The notes below the pieces were generated by a model. It was not told the DNA's origin, did no database searches, and saw nothing but the letters and a program-made list of their open reading frames with translations. Positions 39,027-64,000 of a stretch of 64,000 nt of DNA are shown piece after piece. Source of the DNA: Chlorobium sp. (lineage in GTDB: Bacteria; Bacteroidota; Chlorobiia; Chlorobiales; Chlorobiaceae); NCBI GenBank assembly GCA_013203905.1, contig JABMPC010000075.1, positions 43,483 to 107,482 of the forward strand, read 5' to 3'. Both the position numbers and the translations under genes were made by a program. Each line of letters begins with the position of its first letter. The first letter of the stretch is position 1.

Positions 39027-39863
<837 letters not shown>

Positions 39864-39939: not shown

Positions 39940-39955
39940 AGCAACATGTGTGCCA
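39940..39955 (-). promoter_or_regulatory. sigma-54 (-24/-12) promoter of the nifH operon
   Basis: The minus strand reads TGGCAC-ACATG-TTGCT, about 89 nt upstream of the nifH ATG. Confidence 0.85.
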
Positions 39956-40110: not shown

Positions 40111-40154
40111 CCTACCATTTCGTAGGAAAGCCCTTTTTTCTACGAAATGGTAGG
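40111..40154. repeat. perfect 15-bp inverted repeat with 14-nt spacer in the nifA-nifH spacer
   Basis: CCTACCATTTCGTAG (40111-40125) and CTACGAAATGGTAGG (40140-40154), checked letter by letter. No U-tract follows on either strand. Confidence 0.9.
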
Positions 40155-40351: not shown

Positions 40352-41980
40352 TTATGGGCGGAACTTACGGTAGTTGATGCAGAATTTTTTGACGCGCAGC
40401 CCCATGATGCGTTCTGAGAGGCCAAGTTCTGCAGCGGCTCGCGACATGTTTCCCCGTGTGCGCTTGAGGGCTTCGATAATCATCTCTTTTTCAATGGACT
40501 CAAGTTTCTGCTGGAGCGAGCCGGTGTAGGGCGTGCCGCTGGATTCGGCCGTCTGCAGGCTGGGTGGGAGATGGTAGCCGTGGATGACATTGTCTTCACT
40601 GAGAATGACGGCGCGCTCCATGCAGTTTTCAAGTTCCCGCACATTTCCCGGCCAGTGGTAGCGCATCAGCATGTCGATGGAGGTTGTTGATATGCGCCGG
40701 ATCCCTTTCTGGTTCTGCTGGTTGAATTTTTCCACAAAGTAATCGGCAAGCAGCAGAATGTCGGTTTTGCGCTCGCGGAGCGGGGGAACGGTAATGGGAA
40801 AAATGTTCAGCCGGTAGTAAAGGTCTTCACGGAACTGACCCTCAAGGATAAGATTTTCAAGACTGCGGTTTGTGGCGGCAATGATACGGACATCAACCTT
40901 GATTGTTTTGGAACCACCTACCCGTTCAAACTCCTTTTCCTGGAGGATTCTCAGCAGCTTGGCCTGAATGGGAAGGCTGAGCTCACCGATTTCGTCAAGA
41001 AAGATTGTGCCGCCGGCAGCAAGTTCGAACCGACCCTGGCGGGTTGCAACGGCTCCTGTGAAAGAGCCTTTTTCATGGCCGAAGAGTTCACTTTCCACAA
41101 TGCTTTCGGGGAGAGCCGCGCAGTTGAATTTGATGAAAGGTTTCTCGGCTCTCCGGCTTTTGAAGTGGATTGCGCTTGCCACCAGTTCCTTGCCGACGCC
41201 ACTTTCACCCAGAACCAGAGCGGTGGCGCTGGTACCGGCTATTTTGTCGATCAGCTTGAAGAGGCTGATCATCGGCTTGGTATTGCCGATGATGTTTTTT
41301 GGCCGCTTTTCTTCGGGTATGCTTTCTTCAGTCTCCTGTTCTGCGTTTATCGCCGTGGGAGGCGGTGCAAGCTGATCGTGCCGGTCGCTCTCGTGGGCAA
41401 GCTGTTTGAGGCGGACGGCCTGAGAGATCATTGCAGCAATAATGGAGAGCTGGTCTACATGGTGCTGGAGTGCATCGTTGTCTTTCCTGCCTCCTTTTTC
41501 TTTCTTGTTTTCCTTTTCGGTCGGGCCGCCAAGTCTCCGGTCGGCGCTTATGGTGCCAATGATTTCGGAGCCTGCCCGTATGGGTATGCAGATGAAACAG
41601 AGCCCCTCTTTGGTTTCATGTTTCCTTGATCGGGTCCGGTTGAGAAAGAGCGGCTCGTCATTGATGTTGGGGACGATGACATTTCGCCCTGTTTTGACCA
41701 CCTTCCCGACAATGCCCTCTCCAATCCGGTATCGTCCCCGTTCTTTTTCCTCTTCCGACAGTCCGAAGGATTCTTTGATGACAATCTCTCCGGTCTCACG
41801 GTTTACAATAGTGATCATCCCGCGCAGCATGTCCATATGTTCCGACATGATGAAGAGTACGAGGGTCAGCACTTTGCTGATGTCGTTCTCTGCGGTTACG
41901 GTTCTGCTCACTTCCGCGAGCAGACTGATGCTCCTGTTGGCCTGTTCCTGTGGTATAAGCATGGCAGTTCTTTTTTTCAC
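40352..41980 (-). CDS. nifA: sigma-54-dependent nif transcriptional activator NifA (GAF - AAA+ - Fis HTH)
   Basis: 542 aa with an N-terminal GAF domain, the AAA+ core ([28 protein letters not shown]) and a C-terminal HTH (GNMSRAAAELGLSERIMGLRVKKF). The track start is a GTG abutting the nifV stop. The first ATG is at 41962. Confidence 0.9.
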   Translation of the reverse strand: MKKRTAMLIPQEQANRSISLLAEVSRTVTAENDISKVLTLVLFIMSEHMDMLRGMITIVNRETGEIVIKESFGLSEEEKERGRYRIGEGIVGKVVKTGRNVIVPNINDEPLFLNRTRSRKHETKEGLCFICIPIRAGSEIIGTISADRRLGGPTEKENKKEKGGRKDNDALQHHVDQLSIIAAMISQAVRLKQLAHESDRHDQLAPPPTAINAEQETEESIPEEKRPKNIIGNTKPMISLFKLIDKIAGTSATALVLGESGVGKELVASAIHFKSRRAEKPFIKFNCAALPESIVESELFGHEKGSFTGAVATRQGRFELAAGGTIFLDEIGELSLPIQAKLLRILQEKEFERVGGSKTIKVDVRIIAATNRSLENLILEGQFREDLYYRLNIFPITVPPLRERKTDILLLADYFVEKFNQQNQKGIRRISTTSIDMLMRYHWPGNVRELENCMERAVILSEDNVIHGYHLPPSLQTAESSGTPYTGSLQQKLESIEKEMIIEALKRTRGNMSRAAAELGLSERIMGLRVKKFCINYRKFRP

Positions 41981-48879: not shown

Positions 48880-49752
48880 ATGAATCAGGAAGCTGTTGCC
48901 ATAGCCCTTGTGCAGACCTCCTGCAGTGAGGACAGCGCCCGCAATCTGGCAAAAACCATTGAAAAAATACGGGAGGCTGCCGAATCGGGCGCAAAGATCA
49001 TCTGCACGCAGGAATTGTTTACGAGCACCTATTTCTGCCAGACGGAAGACTATGCCCCTTTTGCCCTTGCCGAGCCGGTTCCCGGCCCCACGACCCTCGT
49101 GCTGCAGGATCTGGCCAGAGAGCTTGAGGTGGTGATTGTGGCCTCGCTGTTTGAAATGCGTGCGCCGGGTCTCTACCACAATACGGCCATTGTTGTTGAC
49201 GCTGACGGGCGGTATCTTGGACGGTACCGCAAAATGCATATTCCCGACGATCCGGGTTTTTACGAGAAGTTCTATTTCACACCGGGTGATCTTGGTTACA
49301 GGGTGTTCAAAACGCGCTATGCCACCATCGGTGTGCTGATATGCTGGGATCAGTGGTATCCCGAAGCGGCACGGCTGACAGCACTCATGGGTGCGGAAAT
49401 CCTGTTCTACCCGACGGCCATAGGCTGGGCTTCGAATGAGCACTCAGACGAGGTGCGCTGTTCACAGCTCGCAGCATGGAAAACAATACAGCAGAGCCAT
49501 GCAATTGCCAACGGTGTCTATGTGGCCGCCGCCAACAGGATGGGCCGTGAGAATGAGCTTGAGTTCTGGGGGAGCAGTTTTGTGGCAGGGCCGTTTGGTC
49601 AACTGGAAGCCGAGGCTTCCAGTGATAAAGAGAGCATTCTTCATGCCAGCTGCGACCTCGGCAAGATAGGGTATTACCGTAGCCATTGGCCGTTTCTTCG
49701 TGATAGGAGGGTGGAGAGCTACGAGGCGCTCCAGAAGCGTTTTATTGATTAA
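48880..49752 (+). CDS. aguB: N-carbamoylputrescine amidase (carbon-nitrogen hydrolase)
   Basis: 290 aa with motifs TQELF, YRKMHIPDDPGFYEKFYFTPG and ICWDQWYPE (catalytic Cys). Confidence 0.85.
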   Translation: MNQEAVAIALVQTSCSEDSARNLAKTIEKIREAAESGAKIICTQELFTSTYFCQTEDYAPFALAEPVPGPTTLVLQDLARELEVVIVASLFEMRAPGLYHNTAIVVDADGRYLGRYRKMHIPDDPGFYEKFYFTPGDLGYRVFKTRYATIGVLICWDQWYPEAARLTALMGAEILFYPTAIGWASNEHSDEVRCSQLAAWKTIQQSHAIANGVYVAAANRMGRENELEFWGSSFVAGPFGQLEAEASSDKESILHASCDLGKIGYYRSHWPFLRDRRVESYEALQKRFID

Positions 49753-49776
49753 CATAACAATCATTCTGCAGCGAGC

Positions 49777-51027
49777 ATGAATATTTTCGGTTCCGTTATT
49801 GCCGGTACCCTTGTCACCGTCTTTCTCATCACCCTCGTTTCCTCGCTCCTCAATCTGAAGGCTTCGCATGCTCCGCTGCCGGCTGAGTTCAGAGATCTGT
49901 ACACCGATGAGGCTTACGGAAAGTCGCAGGCCTATCTCCGGGAAACCAGCCAGCTGTCGCTTTTTGGCGGTGCGCTTGATCTTGTTCTGCTGTTCGTGTT
50001 CTGGTTTTCGGGTGGCTTCAATCTGCTCGACCAGTTTCTGAGGGGGTTGGGTTTCAGCTCAATCATGACAGGGGTTTTCTATATCGGCTCTCTTTTGCTT
50101 CTCCAGTCGGTACTCTCCCTTCCCTTTACATTGTACCGGACATTTGTGATAGAGGAACGGTTCGGCTTCAACAGGACAACCCCTGTCGTATTTATGGGTG
50201 ATCTCCTGAAAACCCTTCTGCTTTCAGTGGTTATTGGTGCACCTCTTCTTGCGCTTCTCCTCTGGTTTTTTGAATCAGCAGGAAGCATGGCCTGGCTGTT
50301 GGCATGGGGCGGGATCACCCTTGTCAGCCTTCTGCTCCAGTATGTGGCCCCTGCGTGGATCATGCCGCTCTTCAACCGATTTGTGCCGCTTGAGGATGGG
50401 GAGCTGAAATCAGCCATCACCGACTATGCAGCCGGAGTAGGGTTCCCGCTTTCGGGCATTTATGTCATTGACGGTTCAAAACGCTCCTCCAAAGCAAACG
50501 CCTTTTTTACCGGATTCGGAAAACGAAAGAGAATTGCTCTGTTCGATACCCTCATCAAAAGCCATTCGACAGAGGAACTGGTTGCTGTTCTTGCACATGA
50601 AATTGGCCATTATACTAAAAAACACATCCTTATCGGGATGGTTGTCAGTATTGTGAACATGGGGGTGCTCTTTTTTCTGCTCTCGCTCTTCATCGGCAAC
50701 GCACAGCTCTTTGAAGCATTTTCTATGGAGAATATCTCGGTCTATGGGAGCCTGGTGTTCTTCATGCTGCTCTATACCCCCGTGGAGTTCATTCTCTCCA
50801 TAGTCCTGCAGATGCTCTCAAGAAAGCATGAGTATGAGGCTGATCATTTTGCCCTTACCACATACAGCCGAGGGGAGGCGCTCATTACCGCCCTCAGGAA
50901 TCTTTCGCGAAGCAACCTGACCAACCTGACGCCTCATCCTCTCCATGTTTTCATGACCTATTCCCACCCTCCGGTCAGTATGCGTATCGGGCGGTTGAAA
51001 AGAACTCTTGAGTCCTCTAAGAGCTGA
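49777..51027 (+). CDS. M48 family (Ste24/CAAX prenyl protease-like) zinc metalloprotease
   Basis: 416 aa, polytopic, with the HEIGH zinc motif (VLAHEIGHYTKKH) and a downstream EYEAD. Confidence 0.8.
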   Translation: MNIFGSVIAGTLVTVFLITLVSSLLNLKASHAPLPAEFRDLYTDEAYGKSQAYLRETSQLSLFGGALDLVLLFVFWFSGGFNLLDQFLRGLGFSSIMTGVFYIGSLLLLQSVLSLPFTLYRTFVIEERFGFNRTTPVVFMGDLLKTLLLSVVIGAPLLALLLWFFESAGSMAWLLAWGGITLVSLLLQYVAPAWIMPLFNRFVPLEDGELKSAITDYAAGVGFPLSGIYVIDGSKRSSKANAFFTGFGKRKRIALFDTLIKSHSTEELVAVLAHEIGHYTKKHILIGMVVSIVNMGVLFFLLSLFIGNAQLFEAFSMENISVYGSLVFFMLLYTPVEFILSIVLQMLSRKHEYEADHFALTTYSRGEALITALRNLSRSNLTNLTPHPLHVFMTYSHPPVSMRIGRLKRTLESSKS

Positions 51028-51051
51028 TTTATCCACCATACCACCCTCCCT

Positions 51052-52122
51052 ATGGATGCACCACTCTACAGGATGCCCCCTGAATGGGCACCCCACAAAG
51101 CAACCTGGCTTTCATGGCCGCACAAGCGTGAGTCGTGGCCCGGGAAATTTGAGCCGGTTCCAGCTGTGTTTGCTGAACTTGCCTCCTGGCTGAGCTCTTC
51201 GGAAGAGGTTCACATCAATGTGCTTGACGGGGCGATGGAAGCCGATGCCAGAAAGCTCATTGTGGATATTGCTCATCGTGAACTCCGCATGGAGCGGATA
51301 TTTTTCCATTGCATTCCAACCAATGACGCATGGTGCCGTGATCACGGTCCCAATTATGTCTGCAGTGTATCAGGGGGGACGGCTGAAAAGGTTATTCTCG
51401 ACTGGGATTTTAATGCCTGGGGCGGCAAGTATGAGCCTTATGATGATGACAATGCCGTGCCCTCAAGGGTTGCAGCCCTTTCCGGCCTGCCTGTGGCGAA
51501 CCCTGCAATGGTGCTTGAGGGAGGCGCAATCGATGTGAACGGTGCGGGCCTGCTCCTGACAACGGAAGCATGCCTTCTGAACCCGAACCGCAATCCATCA
51601 ATGAGCCGCCGAGAGATTGAGGAGAGTCTTGGTCGGTGGCTCGGGGCTGAAAAGGTGCTTTGGCTCGGTGAGGGTATAGCCGGTGACGATACCGACGGCC
51701 ATGTTGACGATATGGCACGATTTGTCAATGAGACAACGGTGGTTATAGCCGTTGAGGATGATCCGCAGGATGAGAACCATCTGCCGCTAAAGCACAACTG
51801 CCGGCTTCTTGAAAGCTTTACCGATACTTGTGGCGAGCCGCTCACTGTGGTAAAGTTGCCCATGCCCGAGCCGTTGTACCACGATGGGGAACGCCTTCCG
51901 GCAAGTTATGCCAATTTCTACATCGCCAACACCGTGGTGCTTGTGCCCGTCTACGGGTGCAGTCGAGACCGTGAGGCGCTTGCAGTTCTCCAAAGCTGTT
52001 TCCCCGAAAGGCGGGTAGTGGGGGTTGACTGCAGGGATCTTGTCTGGGGGTTAGGAGCTATTCACTGTGTTACTCATGAAGAGCCGCTCACATCGGCCTG
52101 TTCTGCACCAGTTGTGCCATAA
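51052..52122 (+). CDS. aguA: agmatine deiminase
   Basis: 356 aa with motifs MPPEWAPHKATWLSWPH, AWCRDHGP and a C-terminal GAIHCVT catalytic Cys. Confidence 0.88.
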   Translation: MDAPLYRMPPEWAPHKATWLSWPHKRESWPGKFEPVPAVFAELASWLSSSEEVHINVLDGAMEADARKLIVDIAHRELRMERIFFHCIPTNDAWCRDHGPNYVCSVSGGTAEKVILDWDFNAWGGKYEPYDDDNAVPSRVAALSGLPVANPAMVLEGGAIDVNGAGLLLTTEACLLNPNRNPSMSRREIEESLGRWLGAEKVLWLGEGIAGDDTDGHVDDMARFVNETTVVIAVEDDPQDENHLPLKHNCRLLESFTDTCGEPLTVVKLPMPEPLYHDGERLPASYANFYIANTVVLVPVYGCSRDREALAVLQSCFPERRVVGVDCRDLVWGLGAIHCVTHEEPLTSACSAPVVP

Positions 52123-52160
52123 TCGCACGCAGTGTATCGATTCACTTGTGTCAGTAGAGT

Positions 52161-52197
52161 CGCCCGGAGGATGGTATTTCTTCCGGGCGTTTTTTTT
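52161..52197 (+). terminator. rho-independent terminator after aguA
   Basis: CGCCCGGA-N13-TCCGGGCG followed by TTTTTTTT, 39 nt after the aguA stop. Confidence 0.75.
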
Positions 52198-52260: not shown

Positions 52261-52276
52261 TGGCACGGTGGTTGCA
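52261..52276 (+). promoter_or_regulatory. orphan sigma-54 (-24/-12) promoter
   Basis: TGGCAC-GGTGG-TTGCA is a perfect match to the conserved core. It is intergenic, downstream of the aguA terminator, and no ORF follows. Confidence 0.6.
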
Positions 52277-52286
52277 TAGCTGTTTG

Positions 52287-52374
52287 TGAAATACCTCACG
52301 CCCGTGGGGTTGAGTAGATGTAATGGGGGACATCTGCTCACAAAAAAAGCGGCTGAAAAGCCGCTTTTTTTTTT
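52287..52374 (+). ncRNA. candidate sigma-54-dependent small RNA (about 88 nt; ends predicted, not measured)
   Basis: The start is inferred about 12 nt downstream of the -12 GC. Three predicted stem-loops are present: a weak hairpin around 52295-52314, AGAUGU-AAUGGGGG-ACAUCU at 52316-52335, and the terminator hairpin plus U-run at 52348-52374. The only ATG is followed directly by TAA. Confidence 0.4.
52342..52374. terminator. bidirectional rho-independent terminator (mdh on the minus strand, candidate sRNA on the plus strand)
   Basis: AGCGGCT-GAAA-AGCCGCT is flanked by an A-run upstream and a T-run downstream. It lies about 20 nt after the mdh stop on the minus strand. Confidence 0.8.
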
Positions 52375-52392
52375 ATCTCTTTTTTCATTTCC

Positions 52393-53328
<936 letters not shown>

Positions 53329-60392: not shown

Positions 60393-60626
60393 AATGATTT
60401 CTCCTTTTTCTGATGGCGTTGAAATTGGATATTTTCAGGAGTCGGGAACTTCTTTCGCATACTCCTGTTAAATAACAGCTTGAAAGAAATTTAAAGAATA
60501 TTATTCAATATATAAAGCAAAATATCTTCGGCTTGTTTATCTCTTCCTCTTGACTATTGTATAATTTTCCCTGGGTTTCCTTTGTTTCTGCTGTGTTCGG
60601 CTTTCCGCAATGCTCATATTTTTGTG

Positions 60627-62249
60627 ATGTCCCTTTTCTTTCAGACCGTTGGCGGGTTCCGTAGCTCGGCTCAGAGGGCGCCTCTTTTGAGTGGTCTGCT
60701 TCTTGGAGCCTCCTTCCCTTCCTATCCCTTCGTTCGCCTTGAAATGCTTGCCTGGGTTGCTCTGGTTCCTCTTCTCCTTTCTCTGGTGGATGTCCGCCGG
60801 GCGGGCGATTTTTTCAGGAGGGTTTATGCCGCCATGGTTCTTTACTGCATCATTTCCCTTTGGTGGGTCTCTTTGGCGACCCTCCCCGGGGGAATACTGA
60901 CCATTCTGGCCCAGGCTTTTTTTCTCACCGTGCCCTTCATGCTCTTTTTTGCATTCAGCAGGATGGCCGGTTTTTTCTATGCTCTCTTTGCCCTTCCATT
61001 CGTTCAGGTCGGGTGGGAGTGGCTCTACATGGAGCAGGAGCTCTCTCTCGGGTGGCTGACATTCGGCAATTCACAGGCGCTGCTTACCCCGATGGTGCAG
61101 TATGCCGATATGACGGGAGTCTGGGGAGTGAGTTTTTGGCTCTACTGTTTCAATGCGCTGGCCGTTGCCGCCCTCTATGCCCCGAAGGGTCGCCGGCTCC
61201 GCTATCTCGTGCCGCTACCTGTTATGGTGGCATTGCCGCTCCTCTATGGCGTAATGGTCATGAATGCTGAAAACGAAGTGCCGGGGAACTCCGTGCGCAT
61301 CAGTCTGGTACAGCCAAACCTCAACCCTGTGGACAAATGGGAGAGACTTGGCGCAGTTGAAACCCTTGCTCTTCACTCGCAGATGACGGAGGAGGTTGCT
61401 GAAGTGGAGCATCCCGATCTGGTTATCTGGCCGGAAACCGCCATATCCTTTCCACTCCTTGAGGCTCACAACAGTGAGTATTACCGTTTTCTTTCTCGCT
61501 CTACAGGCGCTTGGAACGCGGCCCTTCTCTCTGGATTTACCGATATTGTCCGGGTGCCTTCCGGGGGCACTCTCCCTTCTGGCGGGCCGGGGAAACAGGA
61601 TCCCCTCACCGGAATGGCAGTTGAGTCGTACAATGCCGCCCTCATGCTTTCACCCCGCAGTGACAGTGTGCAGGTGTACAGGAAGGCCCGGCTCGTGCCG
61701 TTTGCCGAACGGGTTCCCTATTCGGGACAGCTGCCCTGGCTTGAGAATCTGAGTTTCTCGCTCACCGGAGCCGGGAGTTGGGGACGCGGACCCGGAGCCA
61801 CCCTGATGACAATGCAGACTGAAGAAGGAGAGAGTGTGGCGTTGGCCAATATTATCTGTTATGAATCCATTTTTCCCGGGTTTGTGTCACTGTTTGTTAA
61901 GCAGGGCGCCGGGCTGTTGACGCTGGTGACCAATGACGGCTGGTATGGAACTTCCTATGGCCCATGGCAGCATCTTGCTATCGGACGGTTCCGCTGCATT
62001 GAAAACCGGAGGGCGATGGCGCGTTGCGCCAATACGGGAGTGAGCGCCTTTATTGACCGGTTCGGCCGCATTACGGGTGAGCTGCCCTGGTGGAAGAGGG
62101 GGGTGCTGACTCGGGATGTGCCTTTGGAGCGGGAGCTCAGCTTCTATTCCCGATGGCCGGATCTTCTGCCGAAAGCCTCGCTTCTCATGACGGTGGTTCT
62201 CTTTGCTATTGCTTTCCGGAGAAGGGTTCTTAGAGGCCGTAGCGTTTGA
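60627..62249 (+). CDS. lnt: apolipoprotein N-acyltransferase
   Basis: The first ATG in frame is at 60627; the track start at 60582 is TTG. The protein has a polytopic N-domain plus a CN-hydrolase domain ([28 protein letters not shown]). Confidence 0.85.
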
Positions 62250-63369
62250 TTTTTCGGTAGAGAGTCCTCTCTGTAGTGCCGAGTGCCGCAGCCGCCTTTT
62301 TTTTATTTCCTCCACAACTGTTGATGGCCTCCATGATGGTCTTTTTTTCCGCATCGTCAAGTGAGGGTGGCGCAGCTGCAGGTGCCGGGTCGGGTTCGGC
62401 AATCGAAGGGGGGACAGGGCGCTGCGAGGGGTCGGGCAGGAGAAACTTGGCTGGTTGTGGCTGTTGGCCCGCTTCGGCAAGCTGCTGGACCATGTGCCGT
62501 ATGTCGCTTACCTCCTGGCGAAGCTGAATAAGGCTGCTGTAGAGAAGCTGCAGCTCATTTTTTTCAGAGCGGACGGGGTCGTGCACCAGACTTTTGAATC
62601 GGCTGCGCTGGACAAGGTGTTTGTCAAGAATTCCCGAAGTTATCTCCTGTCCTTTTTCAAGAACCAGAAGCGATTCGACAAGGTTGCGCAGTTCGCGTAC
62701 ATTGCCCGGCCATGGGTAGCGCAGCAGCATTTCCGTGGCATCGGGAGTGAATCCTTCAAAGGGAATAGTGTGTTTCTGCTGGAACTCTAGGACGAAGTGC
62801 TCAATGAGCAACAGAATGTCGCGGCCGCGTTCCCTGAGCGGGGGAATCTGGAGTTCCACGCTACGCAACCGGTAATAGAGATCCTCACGGAAATTACGGT
62901 CCGCAACCGCCTGCATGAGGTTTTTGTTGGTGGCCGCGATGATGCGGGTGTCGGAGTAGATGGTTGATGAGGCCCCTACCCTCTGGAACTCTCCGTTCTC
63001 AATGACGCGGAGGAATTTGACCTGGGTTTCAAGTGACATCTCCCCGATTTCGTCAAGAAAAATCGAGCCTCTGTCGGCAGTTTCGAAATAGCCTTTCCTT
63101 CCCTGAACGGCTCCGGTAAAGGCTCCTTTTTCATGACCGAAGAGCTCTGATTCAAGAATGCCCGTGGGGATGGCTCCGCAGTTGACGGGGATGAAGCTTT
63201 TTTCTGCCCGTCGGCTGTGCTTGTGGATGAATCGTGCGAGGACCTCTTTTCCCGATCCGGTTTCCCCTGTAATAAGGACGGTGATGTCAGTTTCTGCCAC
63301 CTGAAGTGCAAACTGACGGAGTCGCTCCATTACATCGCTTGCGCCAATGATATCTATGTCCGGTTTCAT
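62230..63369 (-). CDS. sigma-54-dependent transcriptional activator lacking an N-terminal sensory/receiver domain
   Basis: 379 aa. The AAA+ core begins about 25 residues from the N-terminus ([30 protein letters not shown]). A Pro-rich linker and a Fis-type HTH follow ([27 protein letters not shown]). Confidence 0.85.
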
Positions 63370-64000
63370 CGGCTGGCGGGAAGGACAATGGAACCGAAGG
63401 GGATTGCCTTGCCGGCTTGTTTTGCCTTATCCTCAGAGCTGAATGAGCTGCTGAGGCGTACCTTGTGCATCTGGTTTTCAGGCACAATCACGACAGGACC
63501 GTAGGGGGCAATTCTTGCTGCGAGAGTTTCGGCGTTGGCTCTGGCACCGAAGCTTCCGAACTGGAGCCTAAAGCCTTCCCTGGATTGACTGGTATCGGAT
63601 GAGGCATTCTTTTTCAGTGTCTCAAGCGCTGACTGGAGAGGCGTCATCTGCACTGCCGGAACGGCAGTCTTTGCTGAAAGGGGTGCGGCCCTTGCCAGCA
63701 GGGGTTTGGAGAGTTTCGGCAGCGGCGGTTCTGCTGCAACAGCACTCTTGTAGTCAGCAAGCCTTGTTTTGCTGACTCTGTCCATTGCCTCGTCGGGGTA
63801 GAGGGTGAGCTGCTTTTTGAAAAGCTCAGCGGCTTTGGGGCCGTCGTCGGTCAGGAGGGCTTCTATGACTGTTTTTTCGGAGTTGATGGTGGCTTTTTGA
63901 CGGATATTTTCCAGTAAATAAATTTTATCTTCATTGACAGATTGCTCTATGAGCCTGCTGTAGGATACAGCTTCTGCACTGTGTGCGGATGAAGGCGACA
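63366..64000 (-). CDS. SPOR-domain protein (5' end beyond the window)
   Basis: The reverse frame stays open from 63366 to the window edge, so the track ATG at 63785 is probably internal. The C-terminal about 70 aa look like a SPOR peptidoglycan-binding domain ([22 protein letters not shown]...[18 protein letters not shown]). Confidence 0.6.

Follow-up and report, generated by a model that had tools for sequence, protein, structure and literature searches.

The 64,000-nucleotide (nt) stretch of Chlorobium sp. DNA analysed here (the window) contains, between an agmatine deiminase family gene (aguA-like, aguA below) and a convergent malate dehydrogenase gene (mdh), a gene for the Chlorobi-1 small RNA (sRNA), catalogued in Rfam as RF01696, and this gene is preceded on the + strand by a consensus -24/-12 box for sigma-54. 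Chlorobi-1 is a bona fide structured sRNA family, and the box is kept upstream of nearly all of its copies across the Chlorobiaceae, so that, on comparative grounds, Chlorobi-1 is probably sigma-54-dependent. Taken as a whole, the element is best explained as a Chlorobi-1 gene with a promoter gated by sigma-54 and an activator and with an RNA product that acts in trans, an explanation that we consider likely while leaving appreciable room for others. A sequence-only reading of the region had already proposed a terminator-bounded, non-coding RNA of about 90 nt with a sigma-54 promoter, a core proposal that box conservation and covariation now support. It had connected the element to no named RNA family, which was wrong: the Rfam search that it had asked for returns RF01696.

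The Chlorobi-1 RNA gene and its putative promoter box

The full RF01696 model (positions 1-67) aligns to 52288-52354 on the + strand with 86.2 bits against a gathering score of 50 (E = 2.7e-25), and the Rfam scan finds one copy in the window. Chlorobi-1 was described from 15 sequences as two hairpins with downstream terminators and was classed as a probable sRNA, not as a cis-regulatory element (Weinberg 2010, Genome Biol 11:R31, PMC2864571). The RNA of the window is identical in kind, with the same two hairpins, the conserved terminal loops (GCCM and AAUGGGGG in the family, GCCC and AAUGGGGG here), an intrinsic terminator directly 3' (52342-52374) and a Chlorobi host, whereas the sigma-54 box and the upstream dyads described below are additions of the present analysis. 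The host assignment follows from window proteins identical to entries of Chlorobium sp. or Chlorobium phaeovibrioides, and FmoA, nif and other neighbours in the window are consistent with it. The interval 52287-52380 folds as three hairpins (-42.6 kcal/mol, z = -7.5 versus shuffles), the number that had been drawn by eye from the sequence. The features of the locus are as follows.

51052-52122 (+): agmatine deiminase family gene (aguA-like), conserved left neighbour; Pfam PAD_porph, 4e-125
52113-52129 (no strand assigned): weak dyad of degenerate sequence, TGTGCCATAATCGCACG (TGT-N11-ACG), that overlaps the stop codon of aguA; alignment of aguA-adjacent copies and a TGT-N11-AC[AG] search
52161-52197 (+): predicted aguA intrinsic terminator, an 11-bp stem (hairpin 52161-52189) followed by T8; terminator scan and sequence
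52261-52276 (+): putative sigma-54 (-24/-12) promoter TGGCAC-GGTGG-TTGCA; exact consensus match, box homologous in relatives
52287-52288 (+): predicted start of transcription, 12-13 nt past the C of the -12 GC
52288-52354 (+): Chlorobi-1 RNA, Rfam RF01696
52293-52310 (+): hairpin P1, ACCUCAC-GCCC-GUGGGGU; fold and pair counts
52311-52340 (+): hairpin P2, with the 8-nt loop AAUGGGGG at 52322-52329; fold and pair counts
52342-52374 (both strands): predicted bidirectional intrinsic terminator, A7, GCGGCU-GAAA-AGCCGC and T10; terminator scan and fold
52393-53322 (-): mdh, convergent, conserved right neighbour; Pfam Ldh_1_N and Ldh_1_C

The promoter box comprises TGGCAC (52261-52266), the spacer GGTGG (52267-52271) and TTGCA (52272-52276), matches TGGCAC-N5-TTGCW at 11 of 11 positions, and carries the two dinucleotides of sigma-54 promoters, GG at 52262-52263 and GC at 52274-52275, 10 bp apart. 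Exact matches to this pattern occur twice in the window, here and at 39940-39955 on the - strand, against an expectation of 0.10 from dinucleotide shuffles, and two matches were reached in none of 100 shuffles. The second box lies approximately 90 nt upstream of nifH (39027-39851; Fer4_NifH, 1e-128) and serves as an internal positive control for the appearance of a sigma-54 promoter in this organism. Because sigma-54 promoters start, as a rule of thumb, about 12 nt downstream of the -12 GC (PMC6606865) and the gap between box and P1 is 17 nt in the window, the start is predicted at 52287-52288, and the Rfam model begins at 52288, coinciding with it. A scan for sigma-70 promoters returned no match between 52198 and 52290. 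The sequence-only reading had placed the -24/-12 core at these coordinates, had named the nifH promoter as the sole other site of this kind in the window, and had put the chance expectation at 0.03; sequence, coordinates and the exact-match scan bear out the first two claims, and the estimate is of the right order. A further, 10/11 sigma-54-like match, TGGCACAACTGGTGCA, is found on the - strand within the last codons of aguA (52104-52119), where the + strand reads TGCACCAGTTGTGCCA and contains an NtrC-like half-site, TGCACC; as about three one-mismatch sites are expected per window, this match is probably due to chance.

The RNA gene is bounded on both sides. Upstream, the predicted terminator at 52161-52197 parts aguA transcription from the RNA gene, and the terminator scan confirms the hairpin plus T8 from which it had been argued that aguA ends ahead of the promoter. 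Downstream, the hairpin GCGGCU-GAAA-AGCCGC (52349-52364) is preceded by A7 and followed by T10 (52365-52374), so that the terminator can act on both strands: it would end both the sRNA (+ strand) and mdh (- strand), consistent with the earlier proposal of a strong hairpin with U10 common to both. The mdh open reading frame (ORF) ends 19 nt from this terminator and scores 486.7 bits against NCBIfam TIGR01763, over its cut-off; the aguA-like ORF falls under the equivalog cut-off of the NCBIfam agmatine deiminase model. That gene is the last of a row on the + strand (48880-52122), in which it follows genes for a CN_hydrolase protein, possibly N-carbamoylputrescine amidase, and an M48 peptidase with gaps of 24 nt, an arrangement suggestive of a polyamine-synthesis cluster next to the sRNA gene on its 5' side.

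The possibility that the element encodes a small protein, translated from the conserved AUG in the P2 loop (52323) or from a GTG at 52286, has next to no probability in our view. It draws on the conservation of the loop AUG and on two mechanical ORFs, of 45 amino acids (aa) from the ATG at 52323-52325 and of 54 aa from the GTG. Both ORFs cross the intrinsic terminator, however, the loop AUG is closed off by a stable helix, with no ribosome-binding site free ahead of it, and across 67 copies its frame varies from 4 to 200 aa, with peptides that diverge after about 6 residues and are unrelated beyond them. Since this frame is not conserved, the region is taken to be non-coding, and the small ORF was rejected. 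The statement of the sequence-only reading that no coding frame follows the promoter therefore stands, although not its remark that there is a single ATG, since the element has two, the other (52318-52320) being followed directly by TAA.

Conservation of the RNA and of the box in the Chlorobiaceae

When one genome per species was scanned with a pattern of the RNA core, 60 loci, each taken as 8 kb, were returned. Of these, 52 come from 36 genomes of the Chlorobiaceae (Chlorobium, Pelodictyon, Prosthecochloris and metagenome-assembled genomes), and the remaining 8 are chance matches in unrelated phyla, with other spacer lengths and without a box. A profile search over the 52 Chlorobiaceae loci and the window identified 71 Chlorobi-1 copies, with one to four copies per genome. 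For the two-hairpin structure, a set of 69 distinct copies gives 95.5% paired cells, versus 36-48% when the partners are slid, and compensatory change at 14 of the 18 pairs; none of 500 shuffles reached these values. The two helices differ in how they vary. P2 is paired in 98% of cells and covaries freely (compensatory change at 9 of 10 pairs) around a loop in which UGGGGG is invariant, making AAUGGGGG a candidate seed or recognition element. P1 is paired in 92.4% of cells (compensatory change at 5 of 8 pairs), and its stem core CCUCAC/GUGRGG is conserved in sequence and nearly invariant across copies; its most variable pairs are the outer two, the outermost being unpaired in 32 of the 69 sequences. 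In 67 of the 71 copies, a run of five or more T residues ends 65-87 nt past the start of P1.

Copies are frequently arranged in tandem, with arrays of two to four copies spaced 230-510 bp apart in twelve loci (L009, L012, L017, L018, L022, L031, L034, L040, L041, L048, L054 and L060). Most array copies have a sigma-54 box and a terminator of their own, although in L022 and L031 one copy lacks the terminator T-run. Chlorobium sp. N1 (L012) has four copies in a row beside mdh; the window genome has one at its aguA-mdh locus, and by sequence this copy is nearest to the one flanking mdh in Chlorobium phaeovibrioides (NC_009337/1489337; L021). Including the window, Chlorobi-1 copies directly follow an aguA homologue in 26 loci and face a convergent mdh in 34; in about 23 of the 26 loci with aguA, the M48 peptidase gene is paired with it as well. 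When aguA and mdh occupy different loci, each retains a copy (the RNA is 3' of aguA without mdh in, for example, L005, L016, L033, L035 and L036), and a few copies (L007, L051, L053, L057) have neither gene nearby. This distribution argues for an ancestral arrangement aguA-[Chlorobi-1]n-mdh rather than for a function in cis.

An action in cis, in which convergent sigma-54 transcription or antisense read-through modulates mdh, or in which the hairpins serve as a terminator or insulator between aguA and mdh, is in our assessment very unlikely. The frequency of both neighbours and the bidirectional terminator that the window RNA has in common with mdh speak for such a reading. It does not account for copies lying 3' of aguA with no mdh on the locus or apart from both genes, nor for tandem copies that each have a promoter and a terminator of their own; transcriptional interference requires neither an invariant loop nor covarying stems, and complementarity of the RNA to the mdh and aguA 5' regions is no greater than in shuffled controls.

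The promoter box was scored as present when at least 9 of 11 positions matched TGGCAC-N5-TTGCW within 80 nt upstream, with copies considered assessable if enough upstream DNA was available. Under this definition 66 of 70 assessable copies, from the 36 other Chlorobiaceae genomes and the window, are boxed, 24 of them perfectly, and at least one boxed copy is present in 35 of the 37 genomes. In the 992,160 positions scanned over all loci, 250 sites reach 9/11, and 66 of these are the Chlorobi-1 boxes. The logo derived from 65 distinct promoters reads ttTGGCAyG-N4-TTGCa, with T0, G1, G2, T12 and G13 invariant, and agrees with the extended sigma-54 consensus YTGGCACG-N4-TTGCW, including the G that follows TGGCAC. 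Information is concentrated on TGGCAyG and TTGC. Variation is seen in the N4 spacer, in the DNA further upstream and in the distance between box and P1 (14-35 nt, most commonly 17 nt, as in 26 of 66 copies), so that it is the boxes that are conserved and not their neighbourhood. With two exact matches in the window against 0.10 expected and the box kept at 66 of 70 homologous sites, a chance match was rejected. The sequence-only reading had proposed conservation of the boxes in relatives and compensatory changes in the stems as checks on its proposal, and both checks have come out in its favour.

The boxes are also visible in the flanks of the supplementary alignment published in 2010. Neither sigma-54 nor RpoN is mentioned in the main text of that study or in the 200 of its 438 supplementary files that were searched, and the word promoter, which occurs six times in the main text, is never used there of Chlorobi-1 (PMC2864571). 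No report linking Chlorobi-1 with a sigma-54 promoter or with upstream dyads was found in the searchable literature, and the conserved promoter appears to be unreported. The one green sulfur bacterium with differential RNA sequencing data is Chlorobaculum tepidum, in which nifH and an hsp20 gene were the only places where RpoN motifs were reported; neither the 15 copies of 2010 nor the core-pattern matches include this species. The core-pattern scan found no Chlorobi-1 copy in Chlorobaculum, and the RNA is apparently missing from Chloroherpeton as well.

Upstream dyads and candidate activators

Enhancer sites were sought in 63 regions, each covering the 200 nt that precede a box. The most enriched 6-mer, GTCTCA/TGAGAC, is present in 35 of the 63 regions versus 4 expected, and the dyad TCTCA-N3-TGAGA, allowing up to 2 mismatches, in 38 versus 5.2 expected, with other spacings reaching at most 16. 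A de novo search for perfect 5+5 palindromes found none in 6 or more sequences; the dyad emerged once mismatches were allowed. A matrix for the dyad places 41 of its 45 strong hits in 432 kb at 40-260 nt upstream of a Chlorobi-1 box, so that the dyad is nearly confined to such regions. Most dyad centres fall between 82 and 147 nt ahead of the -24 box, and a few reach -183. In regions with two or more dyads, adjacent centres are commonly separated by 18-20 bp (pairs in L010, L024, L027, L032, L033 and L047), and the 13-bp dyad is often extended to TGTCTCA...TGAGACA, as at approximately 4338-4350 of L018. These dyads are candidate enhancers, or binding sites of an enhancer-binding protein, in many lineages; we know of no regulator with a TCTCA-N3-TGAGA site. 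In the window, the degenerate sequence TGTGCCATAATCGCACG aligns, with several mismatches, to the position of the TGTCTCA-N3-TGAGACA-type dyads of other lineages and is possibly an enhancer remnant.

The window encodes two enhancer-binding proteins, as had been noted from the sequence and is now borne out by Pfam and NCBIfam: NifA (40352-41980), with GAF, AAA+ and helix-turn-helix domains, and a PspF-like protein of 379 aa (62230-63369) that has no sensor domain and scores under every NCBIfam equivalog cut-off. That either drives the RNA would be pure inference. Sites of the NifA type, TGT-N10-ACA, are absent within 200 nt upstream of the window box and barely enriched in relatives (4 of 63 regions versus 1.6 expected), and in this respect the promoter does not resemble a NifA-activated one. 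NifA as the activator is unsupported by these counts and by the nifH upstream repeat, a perfect 14-bp inverted repeat (CTACCATTTCGTAG at 40112-40125 and CTACGAAATGGTAG at 40140-40153) that is unrelated to the Chlorobi-1 dyads. This repeat lies between nifA and the nifH box, approximately 160-200 bp upstream of the box, and may be a nifH enhancer or a nifA terminator. NtrC half-sites and GlrR and LuxO sites are likewise not enriched upstream of the Chlorobi-1 boxes.

The PspF-like gene is co-oriented with a SPOR-domain gene that it overlaps by 4 nt (62230-63785, -), and neither a dyad nor a sigma-54 box was found near this operon. The protein is 67-75% identical to most of the Chlorobiaceae hits listed (91% in the closest relatives), Chlorobaculum among them, and the order SPOR-activator-lnt-fmoA is kept in that genus (L061, 9196-11128). 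Because the activator is conserved in Chlorobaculum, where the pattern scan gave no Chlorobi-1 copy, its distribution is uninformative. An activator gene adjoining the sRNA gene, as in luxO-qrr1 and glrR-glmY, was also considered and rejected, since tblastn with both window activators found none in the 52 loci. Elsewhere in this neighbourhood, Rfam reports the Lnt RNA (RF01711) at 60436-60501 (+), with 65.8 bits against a gathering score of 55; this match, another of the motifs described by Weinberg in 2010, lies directly upstream of the apolipoprotein N-acyltransferase gene (60582-62249), the context expected of it.

Mode of action and comparison with known small RNAs

In the mechanism that we propose, RNA polymerase containing sigma-54 would bind the -24/-12 boxes at 52261-52276, and the promoter would stay closed until an ATP-hydrolysing enhancer-binding protein remodels it, as at all sigma-54 promoters. 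Since such a promoter requires an activated enhancer-binding protein, the RNA would be made only upon a specific signal. Transcription from about 52287-52288 to the terminator ending at 52374 would yield an RNA of about 86 nt, consisting in order of a 5' tail (GAAAUA), P1 (CCUCAC/GUGGGG with loop GCCC), P2 with its AAUGGGGG loop, an A-rich linker, the terminator hairpin and a U tail. This RNA would most likely act in trans as a regulator by way of its invariant G-rich loop, perhaps together with the conserved P1 sequence, and may do so by pairing with C-rich targets; in related genomes the two to four near-identical copies could act jointly. A more specific version, on which we are evenly divided, is that Chlorobi-1 is the output of an unrecognised sigma-54 pathway in which a dedicated activator, bound to paired dyads approximately 85-185 bp upstream, switches on one to four redundant sRNAs that reprogramme gene expression through the AAUGGGGG loop. 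As for targets, 7-mers complementary to the loop occur 23 times in the window, without a pattern.

Several observations weigh against a sigma-54-driven, trans-acting Chlorobi-1. First, L003 is an exception in appearance, having a 10/11 box at -165, but L007 and L051 have no box within 300 nt and L053 has a match of 8/11 (TGGCAT-N5-TTGTC), so that sigma-54 is not obligatory for every copy; moreover, 22% of boxes have TTGT instead of TTGC at -12. Second, the copies share descent, and the enrichment statistics given above overstate their independence. Third, the figure of 41 of 45 matrix hits is partly circular, the dyad matrix having been built from sites in these same upstream regions, and the window copy has no clear dyad, the matrix reaching a score of 8 nowhere near the locus. 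Fourth, RNAduplex comparisons of the RNA with the 5' regions of mdh, aguA and the M48 and L27 genes gave no signal (z from -0.1 to -1.1), by a method that is weak and ignores accessibility. Finally, no RNA-seq, 5' end mapping or genetics on any Chlorobi-1 copy was found in the searchable literature, and rpoN is not in the 64-kb window; an rpoN gene has been reported for Chlorobaculum tepidum (CT1193).

The boxless copies bear on a different reading, in which the box is kept as an operator for some other DNA-binding protein and the RNA arises from an unrecognised sigma-70-type promoter or from aguA read-through. The start site of the RNA is a prediction, and predictions from sigma-54 sites can mislead, since NfiR of Pseudomonas stutzeri starts 29 bp, not 12, past its predicted site (PMC6606865). 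The two boxless copies and the weakly boxed one all keep the RNA and its terminator, which indicates that another type of promoter can serve. Even so, this reading is highly improbable: the invariant positions are the GG and TTG(C) contacted by sigma-54, at fixed spacing and within the extended consensus; this box is also found at the nifH promoter of the window; the sigma-70 scan was empty between 52198 and 52290; aguA has a strong terminator of its own; and copies that are not 3' of aguA are boxed as well. The boxless copies themselves (L007, 2545-2610, equivalent to NC_009337/146066, with a divergent P1 loop GCAAA; L051, 2163-2230) may use another promoter or may be decaying.

A competing account retains sigma-54 dependence and makes the RNA a decoy that titrates an RNA-binding protein recognising the AAUGGGGG loop and P1, with the tandem copies supplying the binding sites that sponges of the CsrB/RsmZ type carry on one molecule. 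The conservation in sequence of the P1 core and the invariance of UGGGGG are what recognition by a protein predicts, tandem amplification to as many as four copies suits titration, and G-rich loops are atypical as seeds of sRNAs that block ribosome-binding sites. The resemblance to CsrB and RsmZ extends to G-rich loop motifs and to several copies or sites, but each Chlorobi-1 RNA has a single G-rich loop with a single GGA, which is replaced by GGC in L013, L039, L041, L045 and L053. The CsrA-type motif is thus not conserved, and the RNA lacks the multiple GGA motifs of a CsrB/RsmZ sponge; an Rfam scan of a 701-nt region returned no family of this type at E <= 10. A binding motif in common with the Chlorobi-RRM leader was also sought, and the one alignment row compared has no similar loop. 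No candidate protein emerged, and loop invariance would be expected just as much if the loop were a base-pairing seed. The decoy is for these reasons an unlikely alternative, though one that carries some weight, and a trans-acting, base-pairing RNA under sigma-54 control is the reading that we prefer.

Rfam has listed Chlorobi-1 as a probable sRNA since 2010, without a promoter, regulator, condition or target having been linked to the family. Under a conserved sigma-54 promoter it would be an independent, tightly switched gene that needs an enhancer-binding protein; it would probably stay off in cells grown under standard conditions, which would account for its having escaped notice, and its function would become experimentally tractable through activator, signal and targets. 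The short list of sigma-54-dependent sRNAs would also gain a lineage remote from the Proteobacteria. With the family known and sigma-54-driven sRNAs a known kind, the advance is incremental rather than conceptual. Among the members of that list is GlmY of enterobacteria. Another is NfiS of Pseudomonas stutzeri, which belongs to a nitrogen-fixation network and whose expression is abolished in an rpoN mutant (PMC6606865). Both resemble Chlorobi-1 in having an orphan sigma-54 promoter, predicted in the case of Chlorobi-1, in front of a non-coding RNA. The window has nif genes as well, but neither NfiS nor GlmY is homologous to Chlorobi-1 according to Rfam, and neither the nifH repeat nor the comparison of NifA-type sites yields a link of Chlorobi-1 to nitrogen fixation.

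The closest parallel is offered by Qrr1-5 of Vibrio, sRNAs that depend on sigma-54 and LuxO (PMC3730234). Both sets comprise small, terminator-bounded RNAs with sigma-54 promoters (predicted for Chlorobi-1), several near-identical paralogues per genome and a strongly conserved single-stranded core. The two are not homologous, since the RNA has no Qrr match in Rfam at E <= 10, and the LuxO site TTGCA-N3-TGCAA is found in none of the 63 upstream regions. Chlorobi-1 copies are often in tandem whereas qrr genes are dispersed, and the conserved core of Chlorobi-1 is a G-rich hairpin loop. Chlorobi-1 is not a Qrr sRNA, then, but by analogy may work like one; if the proposed pathway of dyads, activator and redundant copies is real, a multi-copy sRNA circuit of the Qrr kind would have arisen independently in Chlorobi, and it would provide the first function-linked handle on this orphan RNA.

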